In this document: positions 30,321-51,620 of the stretch, one piece after another
How the letters are laid out: each line of letters opens with the position of its first letter
Numbering within the stretch: the first letter of the stretch is position 1
Source: Candidatus Zhuqueibacterota bacterium
GTDB lineage: Bacteria > Zhuqueibacterota > Zhuqueibacteria > Thermofontimicrobiales > Thermofontimicrobiaceae
Assembly: GCA_049322915.1 (NCBI GenBank)
Contig: JBMOPW010000007.1
Span: 372,246 to 436,245 of the forward strand
Direction of reading: 5' to 3'
DNA: 64,000 nucleotides
Translations under genes and position numbers: made by a program
Notes under the pieces: generated by a model
The model's input: only the letters and a program-made list of their open reading frames with translations
Databases searched by the model: none
What the model was told of the DNA's origin: nothing

Positions 30321-30998
30321 ATGGATATTAAAATTATGGTCATTGAAGACGATCCCGATATTAGTGAAATTCTGGAATACAATCTCCAGCAGGAGGGCTA
30401 TGATGTAATTGTCTGCAATGACGGCGAAAAGGCGCTCGAACAGATTCAGAAAAATCCGCCGACAATGATTCTGCTGGATTTGATGCTCCCCGGCAAAAAC
30501 GGTCTGGAGATTGCCCGCGCAGTGCGCAAGGACGATCGAACGACCAATCTGCCGATCATCATGATTACAGCCCGCTCCGAAGAGATGGACGTGTTGCAGG
30601 GTTTGGAACTGGGCGCCGACGATTATATCACCAAGCCATTCCGTCCCAAAGAAGTCATTGCGCGCGTGAAAGCGCTACTGCGACGCCATCATCGCGATGA
30701 AGATAAAATCTACCAGTTGGGCAAGCTGACCGTCAATTTTTCCAAACACCAGGTGTCGGCTGGCGACAAAGTGCTGGACTTAACGCCCAAGGAATTCCTG
30801 CTGTTGAAAGCGTTGATCCAGGCCAATGGCCGCGTCCTTTCGAGGGACCAGTTGCTGGATCAGGTGTGGGGATATGATTATTACGGGGACCCGCGCACCG
30901 TGGATGTGCATATTCGCCGGCTGCGGAAGAAGCTGGATTTTTGGGCCAATGTGGTCGAGACGGTGAAGGGATTCGGCTATCGCATCAAACTGGCATGA
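30321..30998 (+). CDS. phoB: OmpR-family response regulator, PhoB/PhoP-like
   Basis: REC domain (EDD, LLDLMLP, KPF) plus winged helix '[14 protein letters not shown]'; adjacent to phoR and pst genes. Confidence 0.85.
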
Positions 30999-31293
30999 CC
31001 CGGTTTCATCGAAACAATGGGGATGCGTCTGCCTCTGGCGGTCAGTTGGGGCGCTTCCTTCGGCATGTGCGAACCTGCTTTAAAAGCAGTCGTCTGATAA
31101 ACCTGGTCATTGCGACTCCCAAAACCGATTAGATCCGCGAAGTAACCACCGCTGCGACTTTTCCTGTCAATTAAATGCAATGTAGCTGAGCCGACCACTG
31201 TCCTGAGGCATGCTGAAAATGCCACCTGACAAACTCTCACTTCAGAATTGATTCGTGAAATACCGTTCATTACGCTCTGGAAAAAACAAAGCT

Positions 31294-33081
31294 ATGTTCA
31301 AAAAGTATCGATTGAATTTCGTCTACGTTGTGCTCATTGTCTCGACAATCGCCTTTGTCATTTTTGATATTACGCTGTACGTGAGCCTGAAGGAATATCT
31401 GTACCTGCAGACGTTCAATGAAATGCGGATGAAAACCAGCCTGGCAGTTAAATTGCTGGAACAGAAACGGATCAATCTGCAACCATCCAATATTCATGAA
31501 TTGAAGGATTTAGCCTCACAGTTAGAACATATCGCCAATTCCAGAGTGACCATTATCGATTCCACCGGTCGCGTGCTCATTGATTCCGACGTTCCTGATG
31601 AACACGTGCCGCTCATGGACAATCATATCAAGCGTCCGGAAGTGCAGGACGCCATTAATTCCGGCTGGGGCCAGAGTTACCGGGACAGCGACACCATCCG
31701 GCGCAAATTATTTTACACCGCATTCACCATTCGTAATGAAGGCCGAATCATCGGATTTCTTCGGTTGGCTTACTATGCCCAGAAATTCGAAGAGTCGCTC
31801 AATAAAATCATCGTCCTGATGATCGCGGCAAACGTTTTTGGATTGGTCACGCTGTTTGTGGGAGCATTCTATCTGGGCACGCTGGTGACATTGCCCATTC
31901 TGAAAATTGTTCGGACTGCAAAAACCATTGCGGCAGGGGATTTGAATCGGTCATTTCCCACCCATCGAAAGGACGAGATCGGCACGCTGGCCGAGATTTT
32001 GAATGAACTCACCGAGCGGTTGAAAAGCCAGATCATTCAGGTTTCCAATGAGCGCTCCAAATTGCAGGACATTTTGATCAACCTGGATATTGGCATCATT
32101 GTCATCGATCTGGACAAAAACATCCTCAATGTGAACTCCGAAGTCTATCGGATATTGGGAATGAATAGCTATGAAATTGAACATCGAAATCTGATTGAAA
32201 TACTCCAGGCAGAACCGTTATTGACCGCCATCGAAAAATCCCTGGACGAAGGGAGCAAAGAGAGCGGCGAGTTCACCTGTTCCAGGCAGGAGCGGAAGAT
32301 ATTCATCAGTTATGTCATCACACCGTTTTTCATTTCTGAAGAGAAAATGAACGGCGCATTGATTCAGTTGCAGGACATCACTGAACTGAAAACGCTGGAG
32401 GCCATTCGCCGGGATTTCGTTGCCAATGCGTCTCATGAGCTGAAAACGCCGCTGACAGCGATCATTGGCTATGCCGAAACATTGCATGGCGGGGCCGGAG
32501 AAGACCATGTCGCCCGTACAAAATTCATCTGGAAAATTCTGGAGCAATCCCAGCGGCTGGAGTTCCTCGTCCAGGACCTGCTCCTGCTTTCGAAAATGGA
32601 ACGCGAAGAACCGTTGCAACTGATGCCCTGTCCGCTTCAGCCCATGATTCGCGAAATCGTCGATGAGTTCAGAGAGAAATCCAGCCTGAAGAATATCAAC
32701 ATCTCGGTGGTCGGCCGGCAGAAGGTGATTCTCCAGGTTAATGAAGAGAGCATCCGCGTCGTGTTCAACAATCTGCTGGATAATGCGATCAAATACACGC
32801 CGGAAAATGGCTCCATCACGGTGCGGATTTCGGAATTGGAGAACAGCAAAGTGAGGATCGAATTCATCGATACCGGAATCGGGATTGAGCCCAAGTATCA
32901 CGACCGCATTTTCCAGCGATTCTACCGTGTGGATAAAGCGCGGTCGCGCGCCATCGGAGGCACCGGTCTGGGCCTGGCGATTGTGAAACACATCATCGAA
33001 CGCCACGGCAGCAAAATTCACATTCAGAGCCAGGAAGGCAAGGGCAGTAATTTTTGGTTCGAATTGAATAAAGCGGAATGA
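31294..33081 (+). CDS. phoR: PhoR-like sensor kinase (sCache-HAMP-PAS-HisKA-HATPase)
   Basis: 'MDNHIKRPEV', 'RRDFVANASHELKTPLT', 'RFYRVDKARSR..GGTGLGLAIVKH'. Confidence 0.88.
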   Translation: MFKKYRLNFVYVVLIVSTIAFVIFDITLYVSLKEYLYLQTFNEMRMKTSLAVKLLEQKRINLQPSNIHELKDLASQLEHIANSRVTIIDSTGRVLIDSDVPDEHVPLMDNHIKRPEVQDAINSGWGQSYRDSDTIRRKLFYTAFTIRNEGRIIGFLRLAYYAQKFEESLNKIIVLMIAANVFGLVTLFVGAFYLGTLVTLPILKIVRTAKTIAAGDLNRSFPTHRKDEIGTLAEILNELTERLKSQIIQVSNERSKLQDILINLDIGIIVIDLDKNILNVNSEVYRILGMNSYEIEHRNLIEILQAEPLLTAIEKSLDEGSKESGEFTCSRQERKIFISYVITPFFISEEKMNGALIQLQDITELKTLEAIRRDFVANASHELKTPLTAIIGYAETLHGGAGEDHVARTKFIWKILEQSQRLEFLVQDLLLLSKMEREEPLQLMPCPLQPMIREIVDEFREKSSLKNINISVVGRQKVILQVNEESIRVVFNNLLDNAIKYTPENGSITVRISELENSKVRIEFIDTGIGIEPKYHDRIFQRFYRVDKARSRAIGGTGLGLAIVKHIIERHGSKIHIQSQEGKGSNFWFELNKAE

Positions 33082-33156
33082 GGGAATATCGCCGCCCGGA
33101 TTGACACGATCGTCCCTCTGATTTTCTGACTTCACACGGTCCTGTTGCGGTAAGCC

Positions 33157-33813
33157 TCACGTCCTCAGAAGCCGTTTCACGGATCGCAGCAAAATAGTAA
33201 CGCCGATCAATAGCCCGATGATGAGCATCTCCCAGCGGTAGCTGATGGGCACTCCGGCGGAGACGATTGTGGAGTAGTCCAGAATGAACGAAATAAAGAT
33301 GATGATCGGCGCGAGAATGAGGCCAATCATTTCCCACCGGGTCAAGCTGAATCGCCGGCCGTTTTTTTCAACATAAAGAACGAGCATCGCGCCGGTTATC
33401 AATGCAATCGACACGAGAACGGGCGCGAGCACCGGACTTGCCCACGGTACCGGGATGAGAAACAGCAAATCCCACGTGAACAACGATTCCGGCCAATTCA
33501 GGAAAATTTTCAACCAGATATAATACCAGATATCCCAGACGCCAAAGCCGAACATGAAATACGCCATCCGAATCCAGCGGCCGGTCCCGGCCAGAAAGGC
33601 GATGGCCAGAAGCATGAATAGTGTTGCCGCTTCCCGACCCACTTCAACCAGAGCGATTTGCTTCGGAATGAGGATGATGGGGAATCGGAATCCCTCCGGA
33701 TAATAAAGCTCCCTCAGATAAACCACGACCGCAGATTCCAGATACGCCATCCAGATGCAAAAGAAGAAGACAAGTGAAAGTCGCATGAGTTCGATTTTGA
33801 ATTCTTTTTTCAT
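33157..33813 (-). CDS. Conserved integral membrane protein of unknown function
   Basis: ~6 TM helices; 'AYLESAVVVYLR', 'E..REAAT', 'WD..YY', 'WDLLFLIPVPW..PVLAP'. Confidence 0.75.
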   Translation of the reverse strand: MKKEFKIELMRLSLVFFFCIWMAYLESAVVVYLRELYYPEGFRFPIILIPKQIALVEVGREAATLFMLLAIAFLAGTGRWIRMAYFMFGFGVWDIWYYIWLKIFLNWPESLFTWDLLFLIPVPWASPVLAPVLVSIALITGAMLVLYVEKNGRRFSLTRWEMIGLILAPIIIFISFILDYSTIVSAGVPISYRWEMLIIGLLIGVTILLRSVKRLLRT

Positions 33814-33893
33814 ACTCGTTCATTGGATTGTTCGGATGATATTGAGATTGGAATGATGCTCCTTTAGCCCTGTTTTCGTGGAGACTGTTTCAG

Positions 33894-34718
33894 TCACCAC
33901 AGCGGAATATATCCCACGTCCCGGATAGCTGCCTGTCCCTCTTTCAGCGTGTAATTGATGAACTGTTTTACAATGCCGCGCGGCGAATCAATGGTATAAA
34001 GGTACAGATAGCGCGTGATGGGGTAGGTATCATTTCTCACATTTTCCTCAGTGGGTTCCACGTTGTTTATCCTGCAGTGGACGACCTCTTTGCCGTAGGC
34101 GAGACCGCCATATCCGATTGCTTCTTCATTTTCCTGCACAGCTTTGACAATGGCCGAAGTGGATGTGAGGATCTGAGCGAATTGGCTGTAGGGTTCGCCT
34201 TCGAGAATATGCTCGCGAAAATAGATGTAAGTGCCGGAATTCGGCGATCGTATGAGCACCAGAATTGGACTCATTTTCCCGCCGATCTGACTCCAGTTGG
34301 TTATCTCGCCCCTGTAAATTTTCGCCAATTGCTCGATGGTCAAATTTTTGACCGGATTCTCCGGGTGAACATAGATGCTCAGCGCGTCTTTGGCGACGAG
34401 AAAATTCATCCCGATTTTATTGTATCGCTCAGCCAGCAGCCGCGCTTCATCGGCCAGCACCGGCCGGGAAGCGGTGCAGATATCGGTCTTGCCCTGAATG
34501 AGCGCTTCAAATCCTTTGTGCGAACCACCGCCTTCCACATAGACCGATGTGTTGGGGGAAATTTTCATGTATTCTTCAGCCCATCGCGAGGCCAATATGA
34601 GCATGGTATCCGAGCCCATGATGTGAATGGTGTCGTGTCGCGCGCGAATGATATGACTGCAATCCGAAACGATGATCAATAGCAAAATCAGAATTAGTAT
34701 TTTTCTCATGACAACCAT
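33894..34718 (-). CDS. pstS: PstS-family phosphate-binding lipoprotein (second copy)
   Basis: GSDTM, GGGS..G, ASR, 'RSPNSGTY.YF', 'AIGYGG', 'YPITRYLY'. Confidence 0.88.
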   Translation of the reverse strand: MVVMRKILILILLLIIVSDCSHIIRARHDTIHIMGSDTMLILASRWAEEYMKISPNTSVYVEGGGSHKGFEALIQGKTDICTASRPVLADEARLLAERYNKIGMNFLVAKDALSIYVHPENPVKNLTIEQLAKIYRGEITNWSQIGGKMSPILVLIRSPNSGTYIYFREHILEGEPYSQFAQILTSTSAIVKAVQENEEAIGYGGLAYGKEVVHCRINNVEPTEENVRNDTYPITRYLYLYTIDSPRGIVKQFINYTLKEGQAAIRDVGYIPLW

Positions 34719-34741
34719 CCGAGCAATGTTCCTGTACAGAG

Positions 34742-36436
34742 CTACCGTTTTTCAGCAATGGAACGAAGCCTGGCCATGATGTAGGGCGTGCCGCTGTTCC
34801 ATTGCGGCGGCAGCGTCTCACTGGCAAGGGCGTGGCAAAATGAATAAAGAAAACGACAATGGTGCTGGGCCGCTTCGAAATTGATGTATTGATCCAGATC
34901 GTCACCGGGGGTGTGGTAATATGTCTCAGACCAGTGCATGATGCGCTCCAGCGCCTGCTGCGGCGTTGAATTTTCGAAATGCAATCCTTCGGCGATCAGA
35001 ATGGATGGAATTCCGGCCTTAGCAAATGCGATCTGGTCGGAACGGGCGAACGATTCCATGGCTAAAAATTGAGAGGGCAGCGGCGAAACCTTCAGTCCCC
35101 GGGACGCAGCCACGCGGTTCAGCATGTCGCCCAGCGTCGAGAACTCCTGTCCGACGCCCACCACGTCCTCGAATTTCTCGAACATGGACAATCCGTCGAT
35201 ATTCACGTTGGCGATGGTCTTGTACAGCGGCGCAATGGGATGATCGATGTAATAATTCGATCCGAGCAGGCCTTTCTCTTCGCCGGTCGTGAACAGGAAA
35301 ATGATGTTGTGCAATGGCTTTTCCGGCAGCAGCGAAAAGACCCGCGCAAGTTCCAGCAACGCGCTCACGCCAATGGCATTGTCGCCAACGCCGTTATAAA
35401 TGGAGTCGCCCTTCACCGGCTCGCCAATTCCCAGGTGATCATAATGGGCCGAAAGGATCAGGTACGAATCGTTCGGCCGTTTCATGCGGCCTTCCAGAAA
35501 TCCGACGACATTCCTGTCGAAAAACTCCCGCTCGGTGAATTCCCCTTTGAATGACAGGCTCACCTCCAATGGAAAACTGAGCATGGAATTGTTCTTCTCC
35601 AATTCGCATACCTGTCGCAATGTGAACGGCGCGTTTTGAAAGAGAATCTCGCCGGCGCCTGGATTCAGGGCAATGCTCAGATTGGCGGTCACGGAATAGG
35701 CCAGCGTCACATCCTCGAACGAAAACGCCTGTATCCACTCGCGCCAGGGTTCGTGAACCAATTCCACCGGTCGGGGAATGAGAATGCTGCCGCTGGCGCC
35801 GCGGGAAATGGCAATGCGCTGTTTCGATTCCGGATAGGAATAGATCGTGGGATACGGGCCATCGAAATAAGTGGAATCCTCCGAAGGCGGCTCGCCGGAT
35901 AAAAAGACAACAATTTTGCCATCCACGTCCAGCGACTGGTAATCGTTGTAATCGAATTCAGGAGCGATGATGCCGTAGCCAACAAAGACGAGCTGCTGCG
36001 GCCGGGGGATGTAGGTCTGAGCGCCGGATTTATAGAGCAGGTAGTCGTCTTTCAGCCGGAGATCCACTTCGCCGGTGTTCGAATGGATTTTCATCTGCGA
36101 GGATGGCAGCGGAAAACTGCCATGCATGGGTATCGATTGAAAATAGCTGCGGTTGTCACCCATGGGGATGAACTGCCAGTGAGCCAATTGTCGGGCGATA
36201 TATTCGGCAGCCAATCTGCCGCCAGGCGTGCCTGTTCCGCGTCCCTGCAGCGAATCGTTACCCAAAAAAGCGACATGTTTTTTCAGGCTATCTGCCGATA
36301 TAGAATTGAGAGCTTGATTCAAGTCAGCAGCTCTGGCGTCCATTCCCTGAACCGTGGGAAGGAGTGTCCATAAAACGGCTATCATTCGAAAAACATTCAG
36401 CACGTCCGGCTCCGCGTTTTGGATTCTGAGTGACAA
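34742..36436 (-). CDS. M28 family metallopeptidase with PA domain
   Basis: 'LQGRGTGT', PA insert, SAHYDHLG, NGVGDNA, TGEEKGLLGS, RSDQ, YHTPGD. Confidence 0.9.
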   Translation of the reverse strand: MSLRIQNAEPDVLNVFRMIAVLWTLLPTVQGMDARAADLNQALNSISADSLKKHVAFLGNDSLQGRGTGTPGGRLAAEYIARQLAHWQFIPMGDNRSYFQSIPMHGSFPLPSSQMKIHSNTGEVDLRLKDDYLLYKSGAQTYIPRPQQLVFVGYGIIAPEFDYNDYQSLDVDGKIVVFLSGEPPSEDSTYFDGPYPTIYSYPESKQRIAISRGASGSILIPRPVELVHEPWREWIQAFSFEDVTLAYSVTANLSIALNPGAGEILFQNAPFTLRQVCELEKNNSMLSFPLEVSLSFKGEFTEREFFDRNVVGFLEGRMKRPNDSYLILSAHYDHLGIGEPVKGDSIYNGVGDNAIGVSALLELARVFSLLPEKPLHNIIFLFTTGEEKGLLGSNYYIDHPIAPLYKTIANVNIDGLSMFEKFEDVVGVGQEFSTLGDMLNRVAASRGLKVSPLPSQFLAMESFARSDQIAFAKAGIPSILIAEGLHFENSTPQQALERIMHWSETYYHTPGDDLDQYINFEAAQHHCRFLYSFCHALASETLPPQWNSGTPYIMARLRSIAEKR

Positions 36437-36560
36437 TTACATGATACTTGATTCTCCTGATAAAATCAAGTAATTTTTATAGCATAGCGAATTTTGAATC
36501 GGTGCTGCTATGTAGCCGGATCTCGCGCCAGACGTCGAATCGTTGGCCAGAACGGATTCT

Positions 36561-36626
36561 GTTAACATGGATTTAACATAGATGTCATCTAATTTCTATA
36601 TGACGTTCATTTTTCCGTAATATAAT
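36561..36626 (+). promoter_or_regulatory. Pho-box-like array (up to six 11-bp units) upstream of PAP2
   Basis: GTTAACATGGA/TTTAACATAGA/TGTCATCTAAT/TTCTATATGAC/GTTCATTTTTC/CGTAATATAAT. Confidence 0.7.
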
Positions 36627-36659
36627 CATGCTATCTTTACACAAAAATGAGGAGCAAAC

Positions 36660-37187
36660 ATGTTACGAGCACTATCATTGAACTTTTATCAGTTAGACGT
36701 TCTGCTGTTCAAACAAATCTATCGTTTACATGGTAAAAGTCTTGTCGATGGAATCTTCTATTACCTCACCCGGTCCGGTGATGGGTATTATTACGGACTG
36801 GTAGCAGTGCTTTTGTTGCTCTATGATTTGAATATTGGGAAGCTGGCCGTGATGATGATGGCAGCGTCTTTTGCGATGGAAGTTCCGTTGCATGCCATCG
36901 CCAAGAAGGCGGTGAAACGCACGCGGCCATTCGAAAAGCTGGGCATTATCAGTCTCATCGCTCCCCCGGATAAATACAGTTTCCCGTCCGGCCATACGGC
37001 TGCAGCCATTTTGATGGCCAATATTTTAAGCCTCATTTTCCCGGCATCATCGTATTTATTCTTCGGCTGGGCCATGTCGGTGGGAGTGTCGCGGATTTAC
37101 CTGGGCGTTCATTATCCCTCGGATATCGCCGCCGGGGCCATGTTGGGTTATGTGACATCTGAGATAGGCATTGCTCTGATTATCTGA
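36660..37187 (+). CDS. PAP2 family phosphatase
   Basis: K..VKRTRP, SFPSGH, SRIYLGVHYPSD motifs; GAGGAG RBS. Confidence 0.93.
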   Translation: MLRALSLNFYQLDVLLFKQIYRLHGKSLVDGIFYYLTRSGDGYYYGLVAVLLLLYDLNIGKLAVMMMAASFAMEVPLHAIAKKAVKRTRPFEKLGIISLIAPPDKYSFPSGHTAAAILMANILSLIFPASSYLFFGWAMSVGVSRIYLGVHYPSDIAAGAMLGYVTSEIGIALII

Positions 37188-40613: not shown

Positions 40614-40772
40614 ATCCGTTTAAATAAGAAATACGCCCTGGTTAAAAAGTACTTCATTCGTGAGTGATTCTTAATATGGTGAATGGCTTTATTTAGACTG
40701 AGAAAAATGATGATAAATCAATCAATTCAATTTATTAAATGTTTAACTGTTAATTTATTCAGGAGGAAACGA

Positions 40773-43760
40773 ATGAAGTACTTGAAACCACTTATGATTC
40801 TCGCGTTGTCAGTATTGGTGACGTCGCTGGCATTTGCAGGATCAGATGAGTATCTGGAAAAAGTGAACTATCGGGGAGCATTTGGCGCTTCGAACTGGGC
40901 GGCCGGCTGGACAGGCATGTCCGAATATGGCTTCTTTGCATTATCAGTTGCGACGCCTGGTGACGTTGTGACCGTCACCGACGCGGATATCGCCCCGGGC
41001 GAAACCGTTGTCTGGACAGCTGATAAAGTATGGTTGCTGGATGGTCGCGTGTTCGTCGATGACGGCGCCACATTGATCATCGAAGCCGGCACGGTCATCA
41101 AAGCCAAACCAGGACAGCAGGAAAGCTCCAGCGTGTTGATCGTTGCCCGCGGCGGCAAGATTTACGCCGAAGGTACCCCTGAAAAACCTATTATTTTCAC
41201 CTCTGAGAATGATGATTTATCCAATCCGACCGTACCTCCAGCCACAGCCAAAGGGTTGTGGGGCGGACTGATCGTTCTTGGAAAAGCGCGAATCAATCAT
41301 CCCAATGGCGAGACCAATATTGAAGGCATCCCGACCACCGATTCTCGAGGCTTATACGGCGGCGCCGATGATGAAGATTGCTCAGGCGTTCTGCGATACG
41401 TATCGATTCGACACGGCGGTACGGAGATTGGCGAAGGCAATGAGATCAATGGTTTGACCATGGGCGCAGTTGGCCGCGGCACGACGATCAGCCACGTGGA
41501 AGTATTCTCCAATAAAGATGATGGATTTGAATGGTTTGGCGGCACAGTGAACTGCGATCACCTGGTGTCAGCGTTCTGCGGAGACGATGCATTTGATATC
41601 GACGAAGGCTTGCGGAATAAGATGCAGTTTCTGTTTGCGATCCAATCGGACAGCACTGGCGATTTGTGCGCGGAACATGATGGCGCGCCCGAGTCCAGCG
41701 TGGCGACAGCTGATCCGTTGTCATACACAGTGGTTTACAATGCGACCTATCTTGGCGGCGGCATGAGCGGCGCCAATGGAGCGAGTGTGATGCGACTCCG
41801 CGAGAAGTTTGGGGGCGCTTACATGAATTCGATATTCGGCGACTACAATGGTTACGGTGTTCGCGTGGATGACGATCAGACGCCGCACGATGCATCGGAT
41901 CGAATGGCTGCCGGCGAGTTGACGGTTGGCAACAATATCTGGTTCAATTTTTCCAAAGGCAATACGGTAGAAGCGGTTGCCAATAACAAGGCGTTTTTGG
42001 TGAATCATCTGGCTGCCAATCACAATGATCTGGCTGACCCGATGTTGAACAGCATCAGCCGCGCTCAGGACAATGGCCTGGATCCCCGTCCGGCTGTCGA
42101 TGGCCCGGCATTCAATAACCTGGCTTCGCTGCCCGCTGATGAAGATTTCTTCGAACATGTCCCGTATCGCGGCGCGTTTGGCGCAACGAACTGGGCTGCC
42201 GGCTGGTCAGCTCTTGCTCATTACGGATTTTTCTCTCAGCCCACTCCTCGTGGGACCGAGATTGTGACCGTCACCGACGCGGATATCGCCCCGGGCGAAA
42301 CCGTTGTCTGGACGGCTGATAAAGTATGGTTGCTGGATGGTCGCGTGTTCGTCGATGACGGCGCCACATTGATCATCGAAGCCGGCACGGTCGTCAAAGC
42401 CAAACCGGGACAGCAGGAAAGCTCCAGCGTGTTGATCGTTGCCCGCGGCGGCAAAATCTACGCCGAAGGAAACGTAACGCTTGACGCTGGTATCATCAAA
42501 TCCAATCCCATTATTTTCACCTCTGAGAATGATGATTTATCCAATCCGACCGTACCTCCAGCCACAGCCAAAGGGTTGTGGGGCGGACTGATCGTTCTTG
42601 GAAAAGCGCGAATCAATCATCCCAATGGCGAGACCAATATTGAAGGCATCCCGACCACCGATTCTCGAGGCTTATACGGCGGCGCCGATGATGAAGATTG
42701 CTCAGGCGTTCTGCGATACGTATCGATTCGACACGGCGGTACGGAGATTGGCGAAGGCAATGAGATCAATGGTTTGACCATGGGCGCAGTTGGCCGCGGC
42801 ACGACGATCAGCCACGTGGAAGTATTCTCCAATAAAGATGATGGATTTGAATGGTTTGGCGGCACAGTGAACTGCGATCACCTGGTGTCAGCGTTCTGCG
42901 GAGACGATGCATTTGATATCGACGAAGGCTTGCGGAATAAGATGCAGTTTCTGTTTGCGATCCAATCGGACAGCACTGGCGATTTGTGCGCGGAACATGA
43001 TGGCGCGCCCGAGTCCAGCGTGGCGACAGCTGATCCGTTGTCATACACAGTGGTTTACAATGCGACCTATCTTGGCGGCGGCATGAGCGGCGCCAATGGA
43101 GCGAGTGTGATGCGACTCCGCGAGAAGTTTGGGGGCGCTTACATGAATTCGATATTCGGCGACTACAATGGTTACGGTGTTCGCGTGGATGACGATCAGA
43201 CGCCGCACGATGCATCGGATCGAATGGCTGCCGGCGAGTTGACGGTTGGCAACAATATCTGGTTCAATTTTTCCAAAGGCAATACGGTAGAAGCGGTTGC
43301 CAATAACAAGGCGTTTTTGGTGAATCATCTGGCTGCCAATCACAATGATCTGGCTGACCCGATGTTGAACAGCATCAGCCGCGCTCAGGACAATGGCCTG
43401 GATCCCCGTCCGGCTGTCGATGGCCCGGCATTCAATAACCTGGCTGAAATCATGACTCGCGTCCGGTACATCTCCTACGACTCGAATGTGATTCCTGAAA
43501 ATTTCAACCTGTCTCAGAATTACCCGAATCCATTCAACCCGACAACCACGATTGAATTCACCCTTCCGATGACTTCGAACGTAAAATTGAGCGTCTACAA
43601 TCTGCTTGGCCAGAATGTGGGCACATTGCTCTCGGGCGATCTGAACGCGGGTGTGCATAGAATTCAGTGGGACGCTTCCAGTTTACCGAGCGGTATGTAC
43701 ATCTACCGCCTCGAAGCGGGCTCCACGGTTTTGAATAAAAAACTGACATTGTTGAAGTAA
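40773..43760 (+). CDS. T9SS cargo protein with two tandem beta-helix-like domains and a type-A CTD
   Basis: AGGAGG RBS before ATG 40773; signal peptide; duplicated ~440-aa unit; CTD 'LSQNYPNPFNPTTTIEF...SGMYIYRL...KKLTLLK'. Confidence 0.85.
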   Translation: MKYLKPLMILALSVLVTSLAFAGSDEYLEKVNYRGAFGASNWAAGWTGMSEYGFFALSVATPGDVVTVTDADIAPGETVVWTADKVWLLDGRVFVDDGATLIIEAGTVIKAKPGQQESSSVLIVARGGKIYAEGTPEKPIIFTSENDDLSNPTVPPATAKGLWGGLIVLGKARINHPNGETNIEGIPTTDSRGLYGGADDEDCSGVLRYVSIRHGGTEIGEGNEINGLTMGAVGRGTTISHVEVFSNKDDGFEWFGGTVNCDHLVSAFCGDDAFDIDEGLRNKMQFLFAIQSDSTGDLCAEHDGAPESSVATADPLSYTVVYNATYLGGGMSGANGASVMRLREKFGGAYMNSIFGDYNGYGVRVDDDQTPHDASDRMAAGELTVGNNIWFNFSKGNTVEAVANNKAFLVNHLAANHNDLADPMLNSISRAQDNGLDPRPAVDGPAFNNLASLPADEDFFEHVPYRGAFGATNWAAGWSALAHYGFFSQPTPRGTEIVTVTDADIAPGETVVWTADKVWLLDGRVFVDDGATLIIEAGTVVKAKPGQQESSSVLIVARGGKIYAEGNVTLDAGIIKSNPIIFTSENDDLSNPTVPPATAKGLWGGLIVLGKARINHPNGETNIEGIPTTDSRGLYGGADDEDCSGVLRYVSIRHGGTEIGEGNEINGLTMGAVGRGTTISHVEVFSNKDDGFEWFGGTVNCDHLVSAFCGDDAFDIDEGLRNKMQFLFAIQSDSTGDLCAEHDGAPESSVATADPLSYTVVYNATYLGGGMSGANGASVMRLREKFGGAYMNSIFGDYNGYGVRVDDDQTPHDASDRMAAGELTVGNNIWFNFSKGNTVEAVANNKAFLVNHLAANHNDLADPMLNSISRAQDNGLDPRPAVDGPAFNNLAEIMTRVRYISYDSNVIPENFNLSQNYPNPFNPTTTIEFTLPMTSNVKLSVYNLLGQNVGTLLSGDLNAGVHRIQWDASSLPSGMYIYRLEAGSTVLNKKLTLLK
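41190..43445 (+). repeat. Intragenic direct repeat: 41190-42125 = 42510-43445 (936 bp), plus near-identical 40966-41172 / 42262-42468
   Basis: Line-by-line identity at offset 1320; identical antisense ORFs in the ORF track. Confidence 0.95.
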
Positions 43761-43805
43761 GAGTAGCCCCTCTTATAGTTTTACCTCTTAATACTCTTAT
43801 TCTAG

Positions 43806-43841
43806 AAAGCCAGTGGGTATTCTTTCCCGCTGGCTTTTTTT
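43806..43841 (+). terminator. Rho-independent terminator
   Basis: AAAGCCAGTGGG...CCCGCTGGCTTT followed by a T-run. Confidence 0.85.
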
Positions 43842-44368: not shown

Positions 44369-44562
44369 TCCCGGCACCTTCATCTCAAAGTTTGCTGAAA
44401 AAGCGTTCAGCGCCAGGCAAATCAGAAACTTGGAAACCAAGACCCAATTCAGAAAACAAAACGTAACAGAAATTGGCGCAACAAAGTTAGCGCCCATTTT
44501 GAGGGACAGTCATTATGCGAGAAGACAAGACTCAATTATTGGATGATACGAGGAGTTTTGAC

Positions 44563-45666
44563 ATGTCGTCAATTTTGGAAGAGCGATTGAGGCGCGGCAT
44601 TGATCTCATTCGCAACAAGGTTTCCGAGATGGCAATTCAAGCGGAGCGGGCCACCGAAGCCAGCCTGAAATCGTTGACAGAGAACAATCGCAAACTCGCC
44701 TATGCGGTCATTTTGCGCGACCAGCGAATTGATCAACTGGAAAAGGAACTTGACCGTTTGTGCCTGGAGTTTCTCGTTCGGCAACAGCCCGTTGCCGGGC
44801 ATCTGCGTTTTGTGTATGCGACAATAAAAATCAATACAGACCTGGAACGCATCGGCGACTATGCCGAGAGCATTGCCCGACAGGTGCTGTTCATCAGTTC
44901 CATTGATCGAAAAATTTCAATGAATCGATTCATCGAGATCGGGGAATTAGCTATTAAAATGCTGCACGACGCGACTCGGTCGTTCATCGATCAGAATGCG
45001 GACCTGGCGCGAAAAACCATCGAATTGGAGAGACAGGTGGATTGGCTGCGCACGCAAATTCGCGTCGAATTGTTGCAGCTACACCGCGATGGGAAAATAA
45101 CGCTGGAAGAGATCATCCCCATGCTGGTGATTGCCGCCCGGTTCGAGCGCGTGGCTGACCAATCGGTGAATATTTGTGAAGAAGTGCTGTACATTTGTAC
45201 CGGCGAAGTGCTGAAGCACTCCGGGCTGGAGACCTTCCGCGTGCTTTTCCTTTCCAAAGGAAATTCAATGCGGAGCCAGATGGCAGAGGGAATTGCCAAT
45301 TCACTGGGCATGGAACAGTTCGTTTTCACCAGCGCTGGACTGACCCCACGTCTGGTCGATCCCCGGGTTGTCAGTTACATGAAGAAAAAGGGCATCGATA
45401 TTTCCATGCAAAATTCCAAATCGATTCAACAAGTCCCCAATCTCGAACATTATCAGGTCATTATCCTGCTCAGTAAAGAAGTGGAAGAGTCGGCTCCGAT
45501 TTTGCCGGCCAAGTCCATTATGCTGCAATGGCTCACGCCGGATCCTTCCTACGCGGAGGGTTCCGTTGACGAGATTGATAAAACATTCGACAAAACATTT
45601 GAATATCTGAACACTCATATCCGTGATTTTGTGCAGGCTGTACTGAGTGATGAAATGTATCCCTAA
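44563..45666 (+). CDS. phoU: PhoU fused to an ArsC/LMW-PTP-like domain lacking the catalytic Cys
   Basis: Two PhoU repeats ('QPVAGHLR', 'DLERIGDYA', 'ERVADQSVNICE'), then 'VLFLSKGNSMRSQMAE', 'SAG', 'QNSKSI', 'W..PDP'; AGGAG RBS before ATG 44563. Confidence 0.9.
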   Translation: MSSILEERLRRGIDLIRNKVSEMAIQAERATEASLKSLTENNRKLAYAVILRDQRIDQLEKELDRLCLEFLVRQQPVAGHLRFVYATIKINTDLERIGDYAESIARQVLFISSIDRKISMNRFIEIGELAIKMLHDATRSFIDQNADLARKTIELERQVDWLRTQIRVELLQLHRDGKITLEEIIPMLVIAARFERVADQSVNICEEVLYICTGEVLKHSGLETFRVLFLSKGNSMRSQMAEGIANSLGMEQFVFTSAGLTPRLVDPRVVSYMKKKGIDISMQNSKSIQQVPNLEHYQVIILLSKEVEESAPILPAKSIMLQWLTPDPSYAEGSVDEIDKTFDKTFEYLNTHIRDFVQAVLSDEMYP

Positions 45667-45685: not shown

Positions 45686-46624
45686 ATGAATACACGCTAT
45701 TTAAAATTGTTGGCAATCGGAAGCATGATTCTGCTTTCTGCCGGCTGCTCCAAAAAGACTGAAGAGAGCGGCAATGTTGCGACCGGCGACAAAGTGACTA
45801 TCCAGAACATCGGCTCTGATACCATGGTGAATCTGGCGCAGGCCTGGTCCGAAGAGTATGCCAAAATTGAACCCAATGTTTCGGTGGAAGTTTCCGGCGG
45901 CGGCTCCGGCACCGGGTTCGCAGCTCTTGTGAATGGCACCGTGGATATTGTGAACGCCAGTCGCGAAATTACCACGGAAGAAAAAGAGAAGGCAACCGCC
46001 AATGCACAGGGCCAGACACCACAGGAATATATCGTCGGCTACGACGCGCTGGCAGTGTATGTGCACAAAGAAAATCCGCTGAATGAAATCAGCATCGAAC
46101 AGCTTGCTGAAATTTACGGCGAAGGTGGCGCCATTGAAAAATGGTCGCAGTTGGGAATCACCAACACGGAATGCCCCAATGACGAGATCATCAGGATCAG
46201 TCGTCAATCCAATTCCGGCACCTACATTTATTTCCGGGAACATGTCGTCGGCCAAACGCGCGATTTCAAACTGGGCTCCACGGACCTGCACGGTTCCAAA
46301 GACGTGGTCGAACTCATTGGCAAAACACCCTGCGCAATCGGCTACAGCGGTATGGGCTACACCACGCCCGATGTGAAAATGCTTAAAATATCTGCGAAGA
46401 CCGGCGGAGTGGCAATTCCCGCTGAAGTTGAGACGACATTGAATAAGACTTATCCCATCGCTCGCCCGTTGTACCTGTACACGCACGGTGTTCCCAACGA
46501 TGCCACTCAAAAATATATCAATTGGATCCTTTCAGATGCCGGGCAGTTGGTGATTGAACAAATCGGATATGTCCCATTGCCAAAGACCCCTATTGAAACC
46601 CCGACGGCGCAGGAAGGGAAATAA
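45686..46624 (+). CDS. pstS: Phosphate ABC transporter substrate-binding lipoprotein
   Basis: Lipobox SAGC; GSDTM, GGGSGTG, SRQSNSGT, YPIARPL. Confidence 0.93.
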   Translation: MNTRYLKLLAIGSMILLSAGCSKKTEESGNVATGDKVTIQNIGSDTMVNLAQAWSEEYAKIEPNVSVEVSGGGSGTGFAALVNGTVDIVNASREITTEEKEKATANAQGQTPQEYIVGYDALAVYVHKENPLNEISIEQLAEIYGEGGAIEKWSQLGITNTECPNDEIIRISRQSNSGTYIYFREHVVGQTRDFKLGSTDLHGSKDVVELIGKTPCAIGYSGMGYTTPDVKMLKISAKTGGVAIPAEVETTLNKTYPIARPLYLYTHGVPNDATQKYINWILSDAGQLVIEQIGYVPLPKTPIETPTAQEGK

Positions 46625-46630
46625 GCAAGC

Positions 46631-47521
46631 ATGAACTGGAGTCGTATCGAGGCTAAAACCGAACCGATCATTGAACTCATCATTCGGCTATGCGGAATTA
46701 GTGCGATCATTTTTGTGTTCGGTATATTTTTCTTCGTATTCCGGGAAGGCGCAGATTTCCTGTTCAGCGGATTGGACATCAAAGAATTCTTCACAAGCGT
46801 CGAATGGTATCCGAATTCATTCAGCAACAAGCGCTATGGCGTGCTGGCGTTGATCACTGGCACGGCCAGTGTCACGCTTCTGGCGATGGCCATCGCCGTG
46901 CCGTTTGGACTGGGATCCGCGATTTTCATCTCCGAATTTTGCAATCCCCGGATGAAAGAGATGCTGAAGATTGTCATTGAACTTTTAGCGGCGATTCCAT
47001 CCGTGGTCTGGGGATTCATTGGTTTGACCGTGATGAACCCGATCATCATCAACGTGTTTCACTCTTCCATCGGCCTGAACATGCTCAACGGGGGCATTAT
47101 CCTCGCGTTGATGAGCGTGCCCATCATTGTGTCCATTGGTGAAGATGCATTGAAGGCGGTGCCTGACTCGTTCCGCGAGGCGGCCATCGCCCTCGGCGCC
47201 ACCCGCTGGCAGGTTGTGTACCGCGTGCTGCTCCCTGCCGCGCGAAATGGTCTGCTGGCGGCCGTGCTGCTTGGCATCGGACGCGCCGTGGGAGAGACAA
47301 TGGCGGTGCTGATGGCGACTGGCCATGCCATCAAAATTCCTACCAGTGTCCTTGATTCAGTGCGTACATTAACGGCGACCATCGCCGCAGAATTGGGAGA
47401 AGCCGCAGAGCACTCGGAGCATTATCAGGTGCTGTTCATCATCGGTATCCTGCTTTTTATGATCACCTTCGCAGTGAATCTCATCGCGGATCTGGTAGTG
47501 AAAGGAGTGCGGGAGAAATAG
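46631..47521 (+). CDS. pstC: Phosphate ABC transporter permease
   Basis: 'ELLAAIPSVVWG', EAA motif 'EAAIALGATRWQ', 'RAVGETMAV'. Confidence 0.95.
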   Translation: MNWSRIEAKTEPIIELIIRLCGISAIIFVFGIFFFVFREGADFLFSGLDIKEFFTSVEWYPNSFSNKRYGVLALITGTASVTLLAMAIAVPFGLGSAIFISEFCNPRMKEMLKIVIELLAAIPSVVWGFIGLTVMNPIIINVFHSSIGLNMLNGGIILALMSVPIIVSIGEDALKAVPDSFREAAIALGATRWQVVYRVLLPAARNGLLAAVLLGIGRAVGETMAVLMATGHAIKIPTSVLDSVRTLTATIAAELGEAAEHSEHYQVLFIIGILLFMITFAVNLIADLVVKGVREK

Positions 47522-47624
47522 CGCTGCGCAGAGAATATTTCGAACGTGCGCCAATCGGTTCAATCAAAATTACCAACAGGGAGGTTTTCCAGGGCATGAA
47601 ATCATCGAATAATTGCATCACGTT

Positions 47625-48521
47625 ATGAACGAAATTACCTTCACAGAAACGCCGTTTGTGCGGCGGAAGAAATACACTGAGAAGCTGGCGCGCACGATTT
47701 TCCTGCTGATGGCGCTGGCGATGATCATCCCGTTGATCGCGATCGTCGGCTACCTTGTCATCAAGGCAATGCCGGTCCTTTCGCTCGATTTTATACTGGA
47801 GAATCCCACCAATCGCATGCGCTCCGGCGGACTCTGGGCGCCGCTGGTGGGGACAATCTATCTCGTGGTCATTTCGCTGGTGATTGCCACGCCCACCGGT
47901 GTGCTGGCCGCAGTTTACCTGAATGAATACGCGCGCGAAAGCTGGTTCACTCGCGTCATCAATCTGGCGGTGGTGAATCTTGCCGGCGTTCCCAGCATCG
48001 TCCACGCGCTGTTCGGACTGGGCGCGTTCGTGCTGTTCGCCGGTCTGGGACGCTCCATTCTGGCGGCGTCGCTGACGCTGGCGATCATGACGCTGCCCGT
48101 CATCATTGCCAGCACCAAAGAGTCGCTGTCATCGGTGCCCATGGCGTTTCGCGTCGCTTGCTGGAATGTCGGCGCAACGCGCTGGCAGACCATCCGCTCC
48201 ATCGTGCTGCCCAATTCCATCAGCGGGATTCTCACTGGCGTGATTTTGCAGGTGTCCCGCGCTGCCGGAGAAACAGCGCCGATCATGTTCACCGGCGTCG
48301 TGTTTTTCAAAGCGTTGGGCGACCACAGCTTTTTCGCCTACGGCTTGTTCGATCAGTGCATGGCTCTGTCCATGCACCTGTTCACCATTTCCACCCAGGT
48401 GACCGGCGTTCCCGAAGCGCTGCCTTACGGCACGGCCGTCGTGCTGATGGCCATTGTGCTGCTGACCAACGGGCTGTCGATCATCTTTCGGGTGTACTTG
48501 CGGTCGCGGAAGAAGTGGTAA
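47625..48521 (+). CDS. pstA: Phosphate ABC transporter permease
   Basis: 'AVYLNEYA', 'LAGVPSIV', 'RAAGETAP'. Confidence 0.95.
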   Translation: MNEITFTETPFVRRKKYTEKLARTIFLLMALAMIIPLIAIVGYLVIKAMPVLSLDFILENPTNRMRSGGLWAPLVGTIYLVVISLVIATPTGVLAAVYLNEYARESWFTRVINLAVVNLAGVPSIVHALFGLGAFVLFAGLGRSILAASLTLAIMTLPVIIASTKESLSSVPMAFRVACWNVGATRWQTIRSIVLPNSISGILTGVILQVSRAAGETAPIMFTGVVFFKALGDHSFFAYGLFDQCMALSMHLFTISTQVTGVPEALPYGTAVVLMAIVLLTNGLSIIFRVYLRSRKKW

Positions 48522-49107: not shown

Positions 49108-49410
49108 ATGGAATATTGTATGGATCGAGAGAAAATTATTCAAACATTAAAGAAATTCAAAGAAGAGAATAAAGATAAATATCATATAAAGAGTCTTGGA
49201 CTATTTGGCTCTGTTGCAAAAAATTGCATGAGAGATAATAGCGATATTGATGTGGTAGTAAAATTAACGAAGCAAGACTTATTTGATTTGATTGGTATTA
49301 AGCAAGATTTAGAAGCGCTACTGAAATATCCAATTGATGTGGTTAGTTACAGAGAAAAAATGAATGCCTTTCTTAAAAAACGGATTGATGAGGAGGCTGT
49401 GTATGTATGA
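49108..49410 (+). CDS. mntA: MNT minimal nucleotidyltransferase antitoxin (MntA)
   Basis: 'LFGSVAKNCMRDNSDIDV' GSX10DXD motif; stop overlaps the hepT start; AT-rich. Confidence 0.88.
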   Translation: MEYCMDREKIIQTLKKFKEENKDKYHIKSLGLFGSVAKNCMRDNSDIDVVVKLTKQDLFDLIGIKQDLEALLKYPIDVVSYREKMNAFLKKRIDEEAVYV

Positions 49411-49774
49411 TAAAGAGCTTGCCAGAGAAATACTGCAACAAATTTATCATGCCATAGAAATTGTTTTGCAGAGATTTGAACCGATAAAAAAGGTAAGTGA
49501 TTTTACGGATAGTCCTTCAGGGATGGAAAAATTGGATTCGATTTGTATGCAATTAATCGTAATTGGGGAAGGATAAAAAAATATTGATAAGGTGACAGAG
49601 AATTCCATATTGCAGAAATATCCTCAAGTAGAATGGAAAAAAGTGAAAGGACTAAGGGATATAATTACACATCATTATGTTGATATAAATGCAGAAGCTA
49701 TCTACGATATATGTGAGAATAAAATTACACTTTTGGCTCAAACTATAAAAAAGATATTAAATGATTTTGAGTAA
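49403..49774 (+). pseudogene. hepT: HEPN/DUF86 toxin (HepT) with an in-frame nonsense codon
   Basis: MYDKEL...IGEG*KNIDKV...WKKVKGLRDIITHHY; TAA at 49574-49576; both halves are in the same frame. Confidence 0.85.
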
Positions 49775-49977: not shown

Positions 49978-50757
49978 ATGAATTTGTTCATGTCAGACAA
50001 TACCCAGAAAAAAATTGAAATTTCCAATCTCTCAGTCAGTTACGGTAAGGTATCGGCCCTGCGCAATATCTCATTCGATGTGCATCGCAACGAAATTCTG
50101 GGCATCATTGGGCCGGCAAAATCAGGGAAATCCACCCTGCTGCAAGCCATTAACCGAACCATCGACCTCATCCCTAATGCGAAGGTCGAAGGGACCATTC
50201 GCATCGACGGCGAGGACATTTCCAAAATAAAAAATGTTAATGCCCTGCGCCGGAAAATCGGCATGGTTTTTCCGCTGCCAGTGGGGCTACCGCTATCGAT
50301 TTACGACAACGTCGCGTTCGCCCCGAGGATGGCCGGCGTGCATCAGCGCGCGGCGCTGGATGAAATTGTCGAGCGCTGCCTGAAGCAAGCAGCCCTGTGG
50401 GATGAAGTGAAAGACCGATTGAAGAGCCTCGGCACCAAGCTCTCCGGCGGACAGCAGCAACGACTGACCATTGCGCGGGCATTGTCGCACAATCCGGAAA
50501 TTCTTTGCCTTGACGAATTCTCCATTGCGGTGGATCCGGTGACCACCATGCGCATCGAGGAGGTACTGAAGGATTTCAAATCGAAAATAACTATCATTCT
50601 GGTCACCAATCTGGTGCAGCAGGCGCGGCGCATCGCCGACCGCACCGCGTTTTTCCTGAACGGCGATCTGCTGGAAATCGACCGCACCGATGTGATTTTC
50701 TCCGATAATCCGGCGCACCGTCAGACGTACGAGTACGTCACCGGCATTTTTGGATAG
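49978..50757 (+). CDS. pstB: Phosphate ABC ATPase PstB1 (intact signature; degenerate Q-, D- and H-loops)
   Basis: GPAKSGKST, LSGGQQQRL, LCLDEFSIAVD, VTNL, terminal 'YVTGIFG'. Confidence 0.9.
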   Translation: MNLFMSDNTQKKIEISNLSVSYGKVSALRNISFDVHRNEILGIIGPAKSGKSTLLQAINRTIDLIPNAKVEGTIRIDGEDISKIKNVNALRRKIGMVFPLPVGLPLSIYDNVAFAPRMAGVHQRAALDEIVERCLKQAALWDEVKDRLKSLGTKLSGGQQQRLTIARALSHNPEILCLDEFSIAVDPVTTMRIEEVLKDFKSKITIILVTNLVQQARRIADRTAFFLNGDLLEIDRTDVIFSDNPAHRQTYEYVTGIFG

Positions 50758-50843
50758 GCCGAACCGACCTGATCCGGCGAAACGCAAATCCGTTGTGGAT
50801 TGACAAATCAATCAGTTATATCTCACAAAATCGAATTGACAAA

Positions 50844-51620
50844 ATGAACGAAGCACCCACATACAGCGTTGAAACGCACAATCTCAATCTCTGGTATGGG
50901 TCATTTCAGGCGCTGAATAACATCAACGTCAAAATCAAAGACCGACTCATCACCGGGCTCATCGGTCCCTCCGGCTGCGGCAAGACCACCCTGCTCCGCA
51001 CGTTCAACCGCATCAACGAACGCTATGGAAACGTCACCACAGTCGGCGAGATAAAAATTTTCAACAAGAATATTTATGACGAAGACGTTTCGCTGATCGA
51101 ACTGCGCAAAAGCGTGGGCATGGTCTTTCAGCGGCCAAATCCGCTGCCGATATCCATCTATGAAAATATCGTCTTTGGCATGCGCCTGCATTTCGGCGCC
51201 ACGACGCTGAAAAAATCCGAGTTGGACGCGTCCGTCGAACAGTCGCTGAAGGACGTTTTTCTCTGGGATGATTTGAAGGACAAGCTCAAAAAGCAGGCCA
51301 CCAGCCTGCAACTGGAGCAGCAGCAGAAATTGTGCATCGCTCGGTTGTTGCCTTTGAAACCGCGCGTCATTCTGATGGACGAACCCTGCTCCGCGCTTGA
51401 TGTGGAAGGCACCCGCGCCGTGGAAGACTTGATGCTCAGCCTGCAGGAAAAATTCACTATTATCATTGTCACGCACAACATGGCCCAGGCGCGCCGAGTG
51501 AGCGATGAATGTATTTTTATGCTCCTCGGCGAATTGATCGAACACAGCGATACCGACGATCTCTTCCTCAATCCCCGCAATCCCAAAACTGCCGATTACA
51601 TCGAGGGCCGCTACGGATGA
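50844..51620 (+). CDS. pstB: Phosphate ABC ATPase PstB2 (degenerate signature motif)
   Basis: GPSGCGKT, VFQRPNP, LQLEQQQK, LMDEPCSALD, VTHNM, 'YIEGRYG'. Confidence 0.92.
   Translation: MNEAPTYSVETHNLNLWYGSFQALNNINVKIKDRLITGLIGPSGCGKTTLLRTFNRINERYGNVTTVGEIKIFNKNIYDEDVSLIELRKSVGMVFQRPNPLPISIYENIVFGMRLHFGATTLKKSELDASVEQSLKDVFLWDDLKDKLKKQATSLQLEQQQKLCIARLLPLKPRVILMDEPCSALDVEGTRAVEDLMLSLQEKFTIIIVTHNMAQARRVSDECIFMLLGELIEHSDTDDLFLNPRNPKTADYIEGRYG

Follow-up and report, generated by a model that had tools for sequence, protein, structure and literature searches.

In a 64,000-nucleotide stretch of contig JBMOPW010000007.1 from a Candidatus Zhuqueibacterota bacterium (assembly GCA_049322915.1, positions 372,246 to 436,245 of the forward strand; hereafter the window), we analyzed a gene in which the phosphate regulator PhoU is fused at its C-terminus to a domain with the fold of arsenate reductase (ArsC) and low-molecular-weight protein tyrosine phosphatase (LMW-PTP). 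Judged from its sequence, the fused domain appears to descend from a thioredoxin-type ArsC, is predicted to be incapable of the known chemistry of either enzyme, neither reducing arsenate nor dephosphorylating a substrate, and is under selection rather than decaying as junk. The fusion opens a distinct type of operon for the phosphate importer Pst, phoU~arsC*-pstS-pstC-pstA-pstB1-pstB2, whose ATPase is predicted to have one consensus and one degenerate ATP site. Our preferred reading, to which we give about an even chance, is that the dead domain serves as a non-catalytic regulatory or docking module on PhoU.

The plus-strand open frame runs from 44515 to 45666 in the list of open reading frames (ORFs), giving a translation of 383 aa to which the Pfam residue numbers refer. 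Inspection of the start site revealed an AGGAG about 8 nt 5' of the ATG at 44563, and the database copy of the protein, like its homologues, has 366-367 aa, so we took 44563 as the start of the gene (Table 1). The N-terminal part matched PhoU (PF01895) in two stretches with 129 bits, above the curated cut-off, and reached the equivalog level with the NCBIfam model phoU_full (TIGR02135; 173.5 bits, cut-off 130.25). The C-terminal part matched LMWPc (PF01451) at residues 243-372 with 47.7 bits against a cut-off of 23.2; its best NCBIfam model was arsC_pI258_fam (TIGR02691), at 77.1 bits far under the cut-off of 174.3. An AlphaFold2 model of the fusion, made with 120 homologues, had a predicted local distance difference test score (pLDDT) of 90.1 and a predicted template modelling score (pTM) of 0.62. 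In Foldseek searches the modelled PhoU part matched 2i0m, 1t72 and 4q25 (TM-score on target 0.93-0.95), and the modelled C-terminal part matched Bacillus subtilis ArsC, 1jl3 (TM-score on target 0.90, root-mean-square deviation 1.6 Å). Pfam, NCBIfam and the fold search agree with a first-pass annotation, made from the DNA letters alone, that 44563..45666 encodes PhoU fused to an ArsC/LMW-PTP domain. The acidic motifs of PhoU repeats have a role in metal binding, and in the fusion and its homologues these motifs (ELERIGD and FERVAD) are kept, with E95, R96, G98, E195, R196, V197 and D199 invariant in 120 sequences.

The evidence for loss of catalysis lies in the former P-loop and in the redox cysteines. 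We aligned the domain to the solved ArsC chains of B. subtilis and of plasmid pI258 from Staphylococcus aureus (E 2.9e-15) and read four substitutions, C10S, C15M, C82S and C89A, with Asn13, Arg16, Ser17 and Asp105-Pro retained. The nucleophile position is the Ser codon TCC at 45253-45255, and there is no Cys anywhere in the domain. The translation and this alignment bear out the first-pass description of an S-K-G-N-S-M-R-S loop with TCC at 45253 in a Cys-less domain, and they give the Asn, Arg, Ser and downstream DP that it listed as kept their ArsC numbers. A sequencing error (TCC for TGC) was ruled out, as Ser is shared at this position by 17 homologues with 60-81% identity. The top PDB sequence match of the domain is an engineered Cys-to-Ser/Ala ArsC. 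Compared with what defines a thioredoxin-type ArsC, the domain has the fold and the residues Asn13, Arg16, Ser17 and Asp105, and it falls short in the equivalog score, the Cys10 nucleophile and the Cys82/Cys89 redox pair; compared with LMW-PTP (PF01451), it passes the gathering score and is without the catalytic Cys of C-X5-R-S/T. With both the nucleophile and the redox pair gone, the known arsenate-reductase and phosphatase chemistry would be impossible. The domain has the hallmarks of a pseudoenzyme, namely an enzyme fold that is kept, a catalytic residue that is lost and purifying selection on what remains. Elsewhere in the window genome (96% complete), in which the fusion is the sole PhoU, we found a true ArsC whose loop reads CTGNSCRS and which has both C82 and C89, as well as an LMW-PTP.

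We extended the comparison to the best 120 matches of a search of 5.8 billion proteins (alignment A1), all of which have the PhoU plus LMWPc architecture. The residue at the Cys10 column is Asp in 91, Ser in 17 and Gly in 12, and Cys in none; the first-pass annotation had suggested tabulating this residue across fusions and had named retention of Cys in close homologues as a refutation, which the count of 0/120 fails to deliver. The Arg16 column holds Arg in 89 sequences and Ala, Val, Leu, Thr or Gln in the other 31, and Asn13, Ser17 and Asp105 are kept in 115, 117 and 114, respectively. A more diverse set came from a search with the domain only against a library of 1.84 billion representatives, of which we kept the best 150 matches. 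A long N-terminal extension was present in 28 of these, and Pfam recognized it as PhoU in 26. Only one of the 26 PhoU-fused representatives (P0182) has a Cys nucleophile; the remaining 25 have Asp (17), Ser (5), Gly (2) or Tyr (1), and Arg16 is kept in 5 of them and replaced in 20.

A FastTree phylogeny of 156 domain sequences over 148 columns, with rows drawn from one in six of the 120 near homologues, the complete set of 150 representatives and the leading 49 matches of another search (full-length domains only), placed the Cys-less fused domains in a single clade of 59 rows with a support of 99. An incomplete member at the base of this clade, P0125, reads C-D-T-N-G-C-R-S, with Cys10 kept and Cys82 and Cys89 gone. 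The Cys-bearing fusions, P0182 and P0281/283/284, carry the full C10/C82/C89 set and fall among ordinary ArsC, which makes it more likely that fusion of PhoU to ArsC arose independently more than once. A single ancestral active fusion was considered and is disfavoured, as P0182 and P0281-284 branch apart from the Cys-less clade. The stand-alone ArsC-like proteins P0138, P0171, P0192 and P0228, each about 150-160 aa long, form a small clade that likewise has Ser at the nucleophile position, for example STGNSTRS, and Cys-less forms therefore occur outside PhoU fusions. Another signalling protein fused to this fold is P0240, a sensor histidine kinase of 740 aa (Cache-HAMP-PAS-HisKA-HATPase) with a C-terminal, Cys-bearing LMWPc domain.

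The mean pairwise identity among the 120 homologues is 0.595 in the ArsC-like part, nearly equal to the 0.658 of the PhoU part, which argues that the domain is under constraint. What is constrained is not the former active site. In the tree of the 120 sequences we counted a minimum of 7 changes of state at Arg16 and of 8 at the nucleophile position. We then set 39 diverse sequences from the Cys-less clade against 91 relatives that have the Cys, by aligned column. Lost in the Cys-less set were Ser14, Arg16, Gln18, Thr80, Cys82, Cys89 and the His preceding the conserved Trp; kept were L228, F229, A241, E242, F253, F255, S257-A-G, G277, P312, W323, P328, L349 and A359. The residues kept across the clade are hydrophobic or of fold type and look structural, and no polar, clade-specific conserved site stood out between the 39 and the 91 sequences.

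In the window the fusion is followed by pstS, pstC, pstA, a 1.45-kb insert with an MNT/HepT cassette, pstB1 and pstB2; the first-pass annotation had also named two PstB proteins. Genes for a PhoB-like and a PhoR/PnpS-like protein lie 12-14 kb upstream of the fusion, within the window. A locus scan with one genome per species gave 525 confirmed loci with a relative of the fusion, of which the best 80 were kept. The relative is full length in all of these except one, which is cut by the end of its contig. The metagenome-assembled genomes (MAGs) behind the best 80 loci are labelled Verrucomicrobiota (41), Myxococcota (15), Calditrichota (2), Acidobacteriota and others, labels that are only as good as their depositors' assignments; the closest relatives among them are the two Calditrichota-labelled loci, at 70-71% identity. 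Directly 3' of the fusion lies pstS in 78 of the 80 loci, the remaining 2 contigs ending there, and the exact order fusion-pstS-pstC-pstA-pstB1-pstB2 occurs in 46. Distribution within the phylum of the window is patchy, with a fused open frame in 10 of the 61 genomes sampled. At L020, L022, L061, L068, L076 and L041 a second, unfused PhoU-like ORF stands beside the fusion operon; the window genome has none.

The two PstB proteins of this operon type are unequal. In a dimer of ATP-binding cassette (ABC) proteins, one subunit contributes the Walker and H-loop motifs to each ATP site, and its partner contributes the signature. PstB1 combines an H-loop VTN with LSGGQ and PstB2 combines VTH with LQLEQ, the composition of a heterodimer with one degenerate site. 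Since the loss of His from PstB1 and the loss of the signature from PstB2 map to the same composite site, the pair would form one consensus and one degenerate ATP site. Across the fusion loci, VTN was present in 63 of 66 PstB1 ORFs and LQLEQ in 53 of 60 PstB2 ORFs, with 4 more carrying close variants, and the deviant positions are invariant in the 57-sequence alignments A2 and A3. We searched the 61 phylum genomes for DNA coding for LQLEQQQKL and found the pattern in 8, all of them among the 10 fusion carriers and each time on the contig and strand of the fusion, 4-6 kb 3' of it; none of the 51 phylum genomes without the fusion had it. The other two fusion genomes have LLLEQ and LSLDQ, both with VTN. 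The P-loops of their fusions are fully eroded (DDDNAIIS and DEENDTLS), and they retain the same operon type and the same PstB asymmetry. Among 71 PstB ORFs from pst operons with an unfused PhoU, neither VTN nor LQLEQ was found.

Table 1. Features of the fusion gene, its operon and associated loci (window positions, except in the last row)
Feature	Position	Strand	Remarks
PhoB-like response regulator	30321..30998	+	best PhoB match of the genome, 264 bits, under the 296 cut-off
PhoR/PnpS-like histidine kinase	31255..33081	+	PnpS 380 bits, phoR_proteo 298 bits, both just below cut-off
Terminator-like hairpin closing the upstream gene	43804..43839	+	followed by ~720 bp of non-coding DNA before phoU
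phoU fused to dead ArsC-like domain	44563..45666	+	367 aa
PhoU part, predicted six-helix bundle, two PhoU repeats	44563..45204	+	~residues 1-214; domain matches, model, fold search
ArsC/LMW-PTP-fold pseudoenzyme domain (predicted)	45235..45648	+	~residues 225-362; domain matches, model, fold search
Former P-loop S-K-G-N-S-M-R-S	45253..45276	+	Ser at the nucleophile (Cys10) position
pstS, phosphate-binding protein	45686..46624	+	
pstC, permease	46631..47521	+	
pstA, permease	47613..48521	+	putative start codon
pstB1	49978..50757	+	canonical LSGGQ; H-loop His replaced by Asn (VTN)
pstB2	50793..51620	+	canonical H-loop His; degenerate signature LQLEQ
Example metagenome loci with intact ArsC at phoU	L098:3488-3931, L104:5791-7405, L128:2613-3755		

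The origin of the domain was traced through pst operons in which ArsC is still intact. With the Cys-bearing fusion P0281 as the query, we collected 80 loci from metagenome contigs; matches to both its PhoU and its ArsC half rank higher, and the counts are to be read as recurrence, not frequency. In 37 of the 80 loci, 39 ArsC-type ORFs stood directly beside phoU in a canonical pstSCAB-phoU operon. They were located after phoU or between pstB and phoU, with one ArsC gene on each side of phoU in L104 and L109, and in one case (L128) the ORF was fused to phoU, a Cys-bearing fusion set apart from the dead clade. The full C10/R16/C82/C89/D105 set was present in 36 of the 39 ORFs, and the other 3 were cut by contig ends or had one substitution. 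The recurrence of intact ArsC beside phoU, or independently fused to it, in other pst operons argues that the link between PhoU and ArsC is old. Arsenate enters cells through phosphate transporters, and for this reason an ArsC at Pst and PhoU makes sense. The window domain looks like the fossil of an ArsC partner that once stood beside PhoU, and that ancestor probably acted there on arsenate that had leaked into the cell by way of Pst. Arsenic islands with pst and ars genes in synteny have been described (PMC3834237).

The first-pass annotation had gone further and proposed that the domain binds inorganic phosphate (Pi), arsenate or a phosphoprotein and tunes PhoU. Its picture of a Cys-less fold on PhoU, in a Pst system with two PstB proteins, stands; oxyanion sensing as a conserved function of the whole family is not supported. 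In this proposal the Cys-less P-loop would bind cytoplasmic Pi, arsenate or a phospho-group and so alter the restraint that PhoU places on PstB1/PstB2 or PhoR, much as ligand-binding regulatory domains do in other ABC importers. The window gene has Asn13, Arg16, Ser17 and Asp105-Pro intact, most of the best 120 sequences keep these residues as well (Arg in 89, Asn in 115, Ser17 in 117, Asp105 in 114), the domain derives from an enzyme that binds oxyanions, and phoU repeatedly has an intact ArsC gene as its neighbour. The Pho signal is intracellular and unidentified according to the abstract of PMC11389368. Against this, 31 of the 120 near homologues have lost Arg16, through at least 7 independent changes, as have 20 of the 25 diverse fused sequences; an acidic Asp occupies the nucleophile position in 91 of the 120; conservation across the clade is confined to hydrophobic and fold residues, with no polar ones among them; and relatives with fully eroded loops retain the operon type and the PstB asymmetry. 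We consider such a sensor rather unlikely, and binding of Pi or arsenate does not appear, from these columns, to be the property that is conserved across the fusion family. In the branch of the window, with its anion loop (Asn, Arg, Ser, Asp-Pro) intact, weak binding of Pi or arsenate as a modulating input is possible.

Two further explanations would deny the domain a regulatory role of the kind we prefer or would restore some chemistry to it. It might be an evolutionary relic, a degenerate enzyme that persists solely through its attachment to PhoU and contributes nothing beyond folding or stability; the catalytic residues are all lost or drifting, and a working ArsC is encoded elsewhere in the genome. 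This is very unlikely in our view, given a domain nearly as conserved as the PhoU part (0.595 against 0.658) that is retained at full length across the best 80 loci, the one contig-end cut aside, in MAGs labelled as several phyla, and that co-varies with a specific PstB1/PstB2 type. Residual chemistry, in which the Ser of the window protein or the Asp of most relatives takes up a phosphoryl group and makes the domain a slow phosphatase or a phospho-acceptor switch, is hardly credible. An Asp or Ser nucleophile is not known to us in any enzyme of the CX5R type, and the idea cannot hold for the 12 of 120 members with Gly at that position; Arg is often lost too. On its side are the Arg and Asp-Pro of the window gene and a Cys-to-Ser mutant of the LMW-PTP family, PDB 4kk4, which by its title has a phosphorylated active-site serine.

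The reading of the domain as a non-catalytic regulatory or docking module has points against it as well. The co-occurrence of the fusion with the asymmetric PstB pair is drawn from related, non-independent genomes, and the association is strong, short of statistical proof. The trees are FastTree only, on 148 columns, and the placement of the PhoU and ArsC-like domains relative to each other is uncertain in the model (pTM 0.62; pLDDT below 50 in the linker at 219-221). The best 120 sequences also keep a polar stretch (K286, Q290, N293, H296, Y297, Q298 and K317), and Asn13, Ser17 and Asp105 are so well kept among them that continued use of a ligand pocket by this sub-clade would fit. A ligand or partner site specific to the sub-clade is possible among these closer 120.

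For the regulatory or docking module, we propose that PhoU, through the dead domain, would engage the unequal PstB1/PstB2 pair, PhoR, or both. A more specific version describes a subtype of Pst importer in which the fossil ArsC on PhoU would act as an internal gauge of Pi or arsenate, docking on the asymmetric PstB1/PstB2 pair, throttling uptake and setting the activity of PhoR. We regard this version as decidedly a long shot; if true, PhoU would carry within itself a cytoplasmic sensor for the signal of the standard Pho model.

Several observations were made on the surroundings of the operon. An Rfam scan of the 720-bp spacer upstream of phoU gave only sub-threshold matches on the terminator hairpin, and no riboswitch or leader was found there. 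The MNT (nucleotidyltransferase)/HepT (HEPN) toxin-antitoxin cassette occupies 49108-49774, between pstA and pstB1, where the relatives L006 and L007 have about 70 bp; its HepT frame has an in-frame stop after codon 70, and the R-x4-H-x-Y motif lies beyond the stop. The upstream phosphate island (30321-37187) also contains another member of the pstS family, on the minus strand at 33894-34718, and, at 36660-37187, a gene resembling PAP2-type phosphatases. Between this island and the fusion, a 1025-aa protein with a type IX secretion system (T9SS) sorting tail (40683-43760) contains two halves that are nearly identical. Its antisense ORFs, at 41297-41545 and 42617-42865, have the same translation, which indicates a recent internal duplication of about 1.3 kb.

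The fusion system offers a natural variant in which to study how Pst, PhoU and PhoR inform bacteria of their phosphate status: PhoU carries a domain of oxyanion-binding-enzyme ancestry and would work with a transporter of unequal ATP sites. Going by MAG labels, it is spread over Verrucomicrobiota, Myxococcota, Calditrichota/KSB1 and other groups, and among the labels are relatives of Pedosphaera, Chthoniobacter and Sorangium. S231 and R237 of the fusion, N211 of PstB1 and the LQLEQ of PstB2 could serve as handles on communication between PhoU and PstB and on discrimination between arsenate and phosphate in uptake control. A full-text literature search, which left subscription journals largely outside, found no paper on a PhoU-ArsC/LMWPc fusion, and in databases the fusion proteins are named simply PhoU or ArsC.

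Comparison with known systems highlights what sets the fusion apart. It shares with canonical PhoU (Escherichia coli/Pseudomonas aeruginosa, 4Q25; Aquifex aeolicus, 1T72; Streptococcus pneumoniae, 2I0M) the two repeats, the six-helix bundle and the company of pstSCAB, here with PhoB- and PhoR-like genes nearby. It differs by a C-terminal extension of about 150 residues that has the fold of ArsC, by a gene that is first rather than last in the operon and by partners that are two unequal PstB proteins. Thioredoxin-coupled ArsC (S. aureus pI258; B. subtilis, 1JL3) has the same fold as the fused domain, with Asn13, Arg16, Ser17, the SAG motif and Asp105-Pro in common; the fused domain, in contrast, is without Cys10, Cys15, Cys82 and Cys89, scores 77 bits against the cut-off of 174 and is not a free enzyme. 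Eukaryotic pseudophosphatases of the STYX type likewise have a phosphatase fold that lost its catalytic Cys and was kept under selection in a signalling protein. The fused domain differs from them in being bacterial, in belonging to the LMW-PTP/ArsC branch and in being joined to a transport regulator, and most of its relatives also lack the anion-binding Arg, which makes trapping of a phospho-ligand doubtful.

The tandem pstB1-pstB2 of Firmicutes, as in Enterococcus faecalis, resembles the window in having two adjacent pstB genes in one pst locus. Both E. faecalis proteins have canonical motifs (PMC12096839), whereas the window PstB1 is without the H-loop His and the window PstB2 without LSGGQ. 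The pst-phoU operons in which an intact ArsC is encoded separately or fused to PhoU (L094-L173; P0182 and P0281) show the same pairing of PhoU and ArsC in a pst operon as the window. Unlike the window domain, their ArsC keep C10/R16/C82/C89/D105 and branch apart from the Cys-less clade, and their phoU follows a single canonical pstB. With the intact enzyme still standing beside phoU in these other lineages, the fusion would represent a clear bacterial case of an enzyme turned into a pseudoenzyme module.

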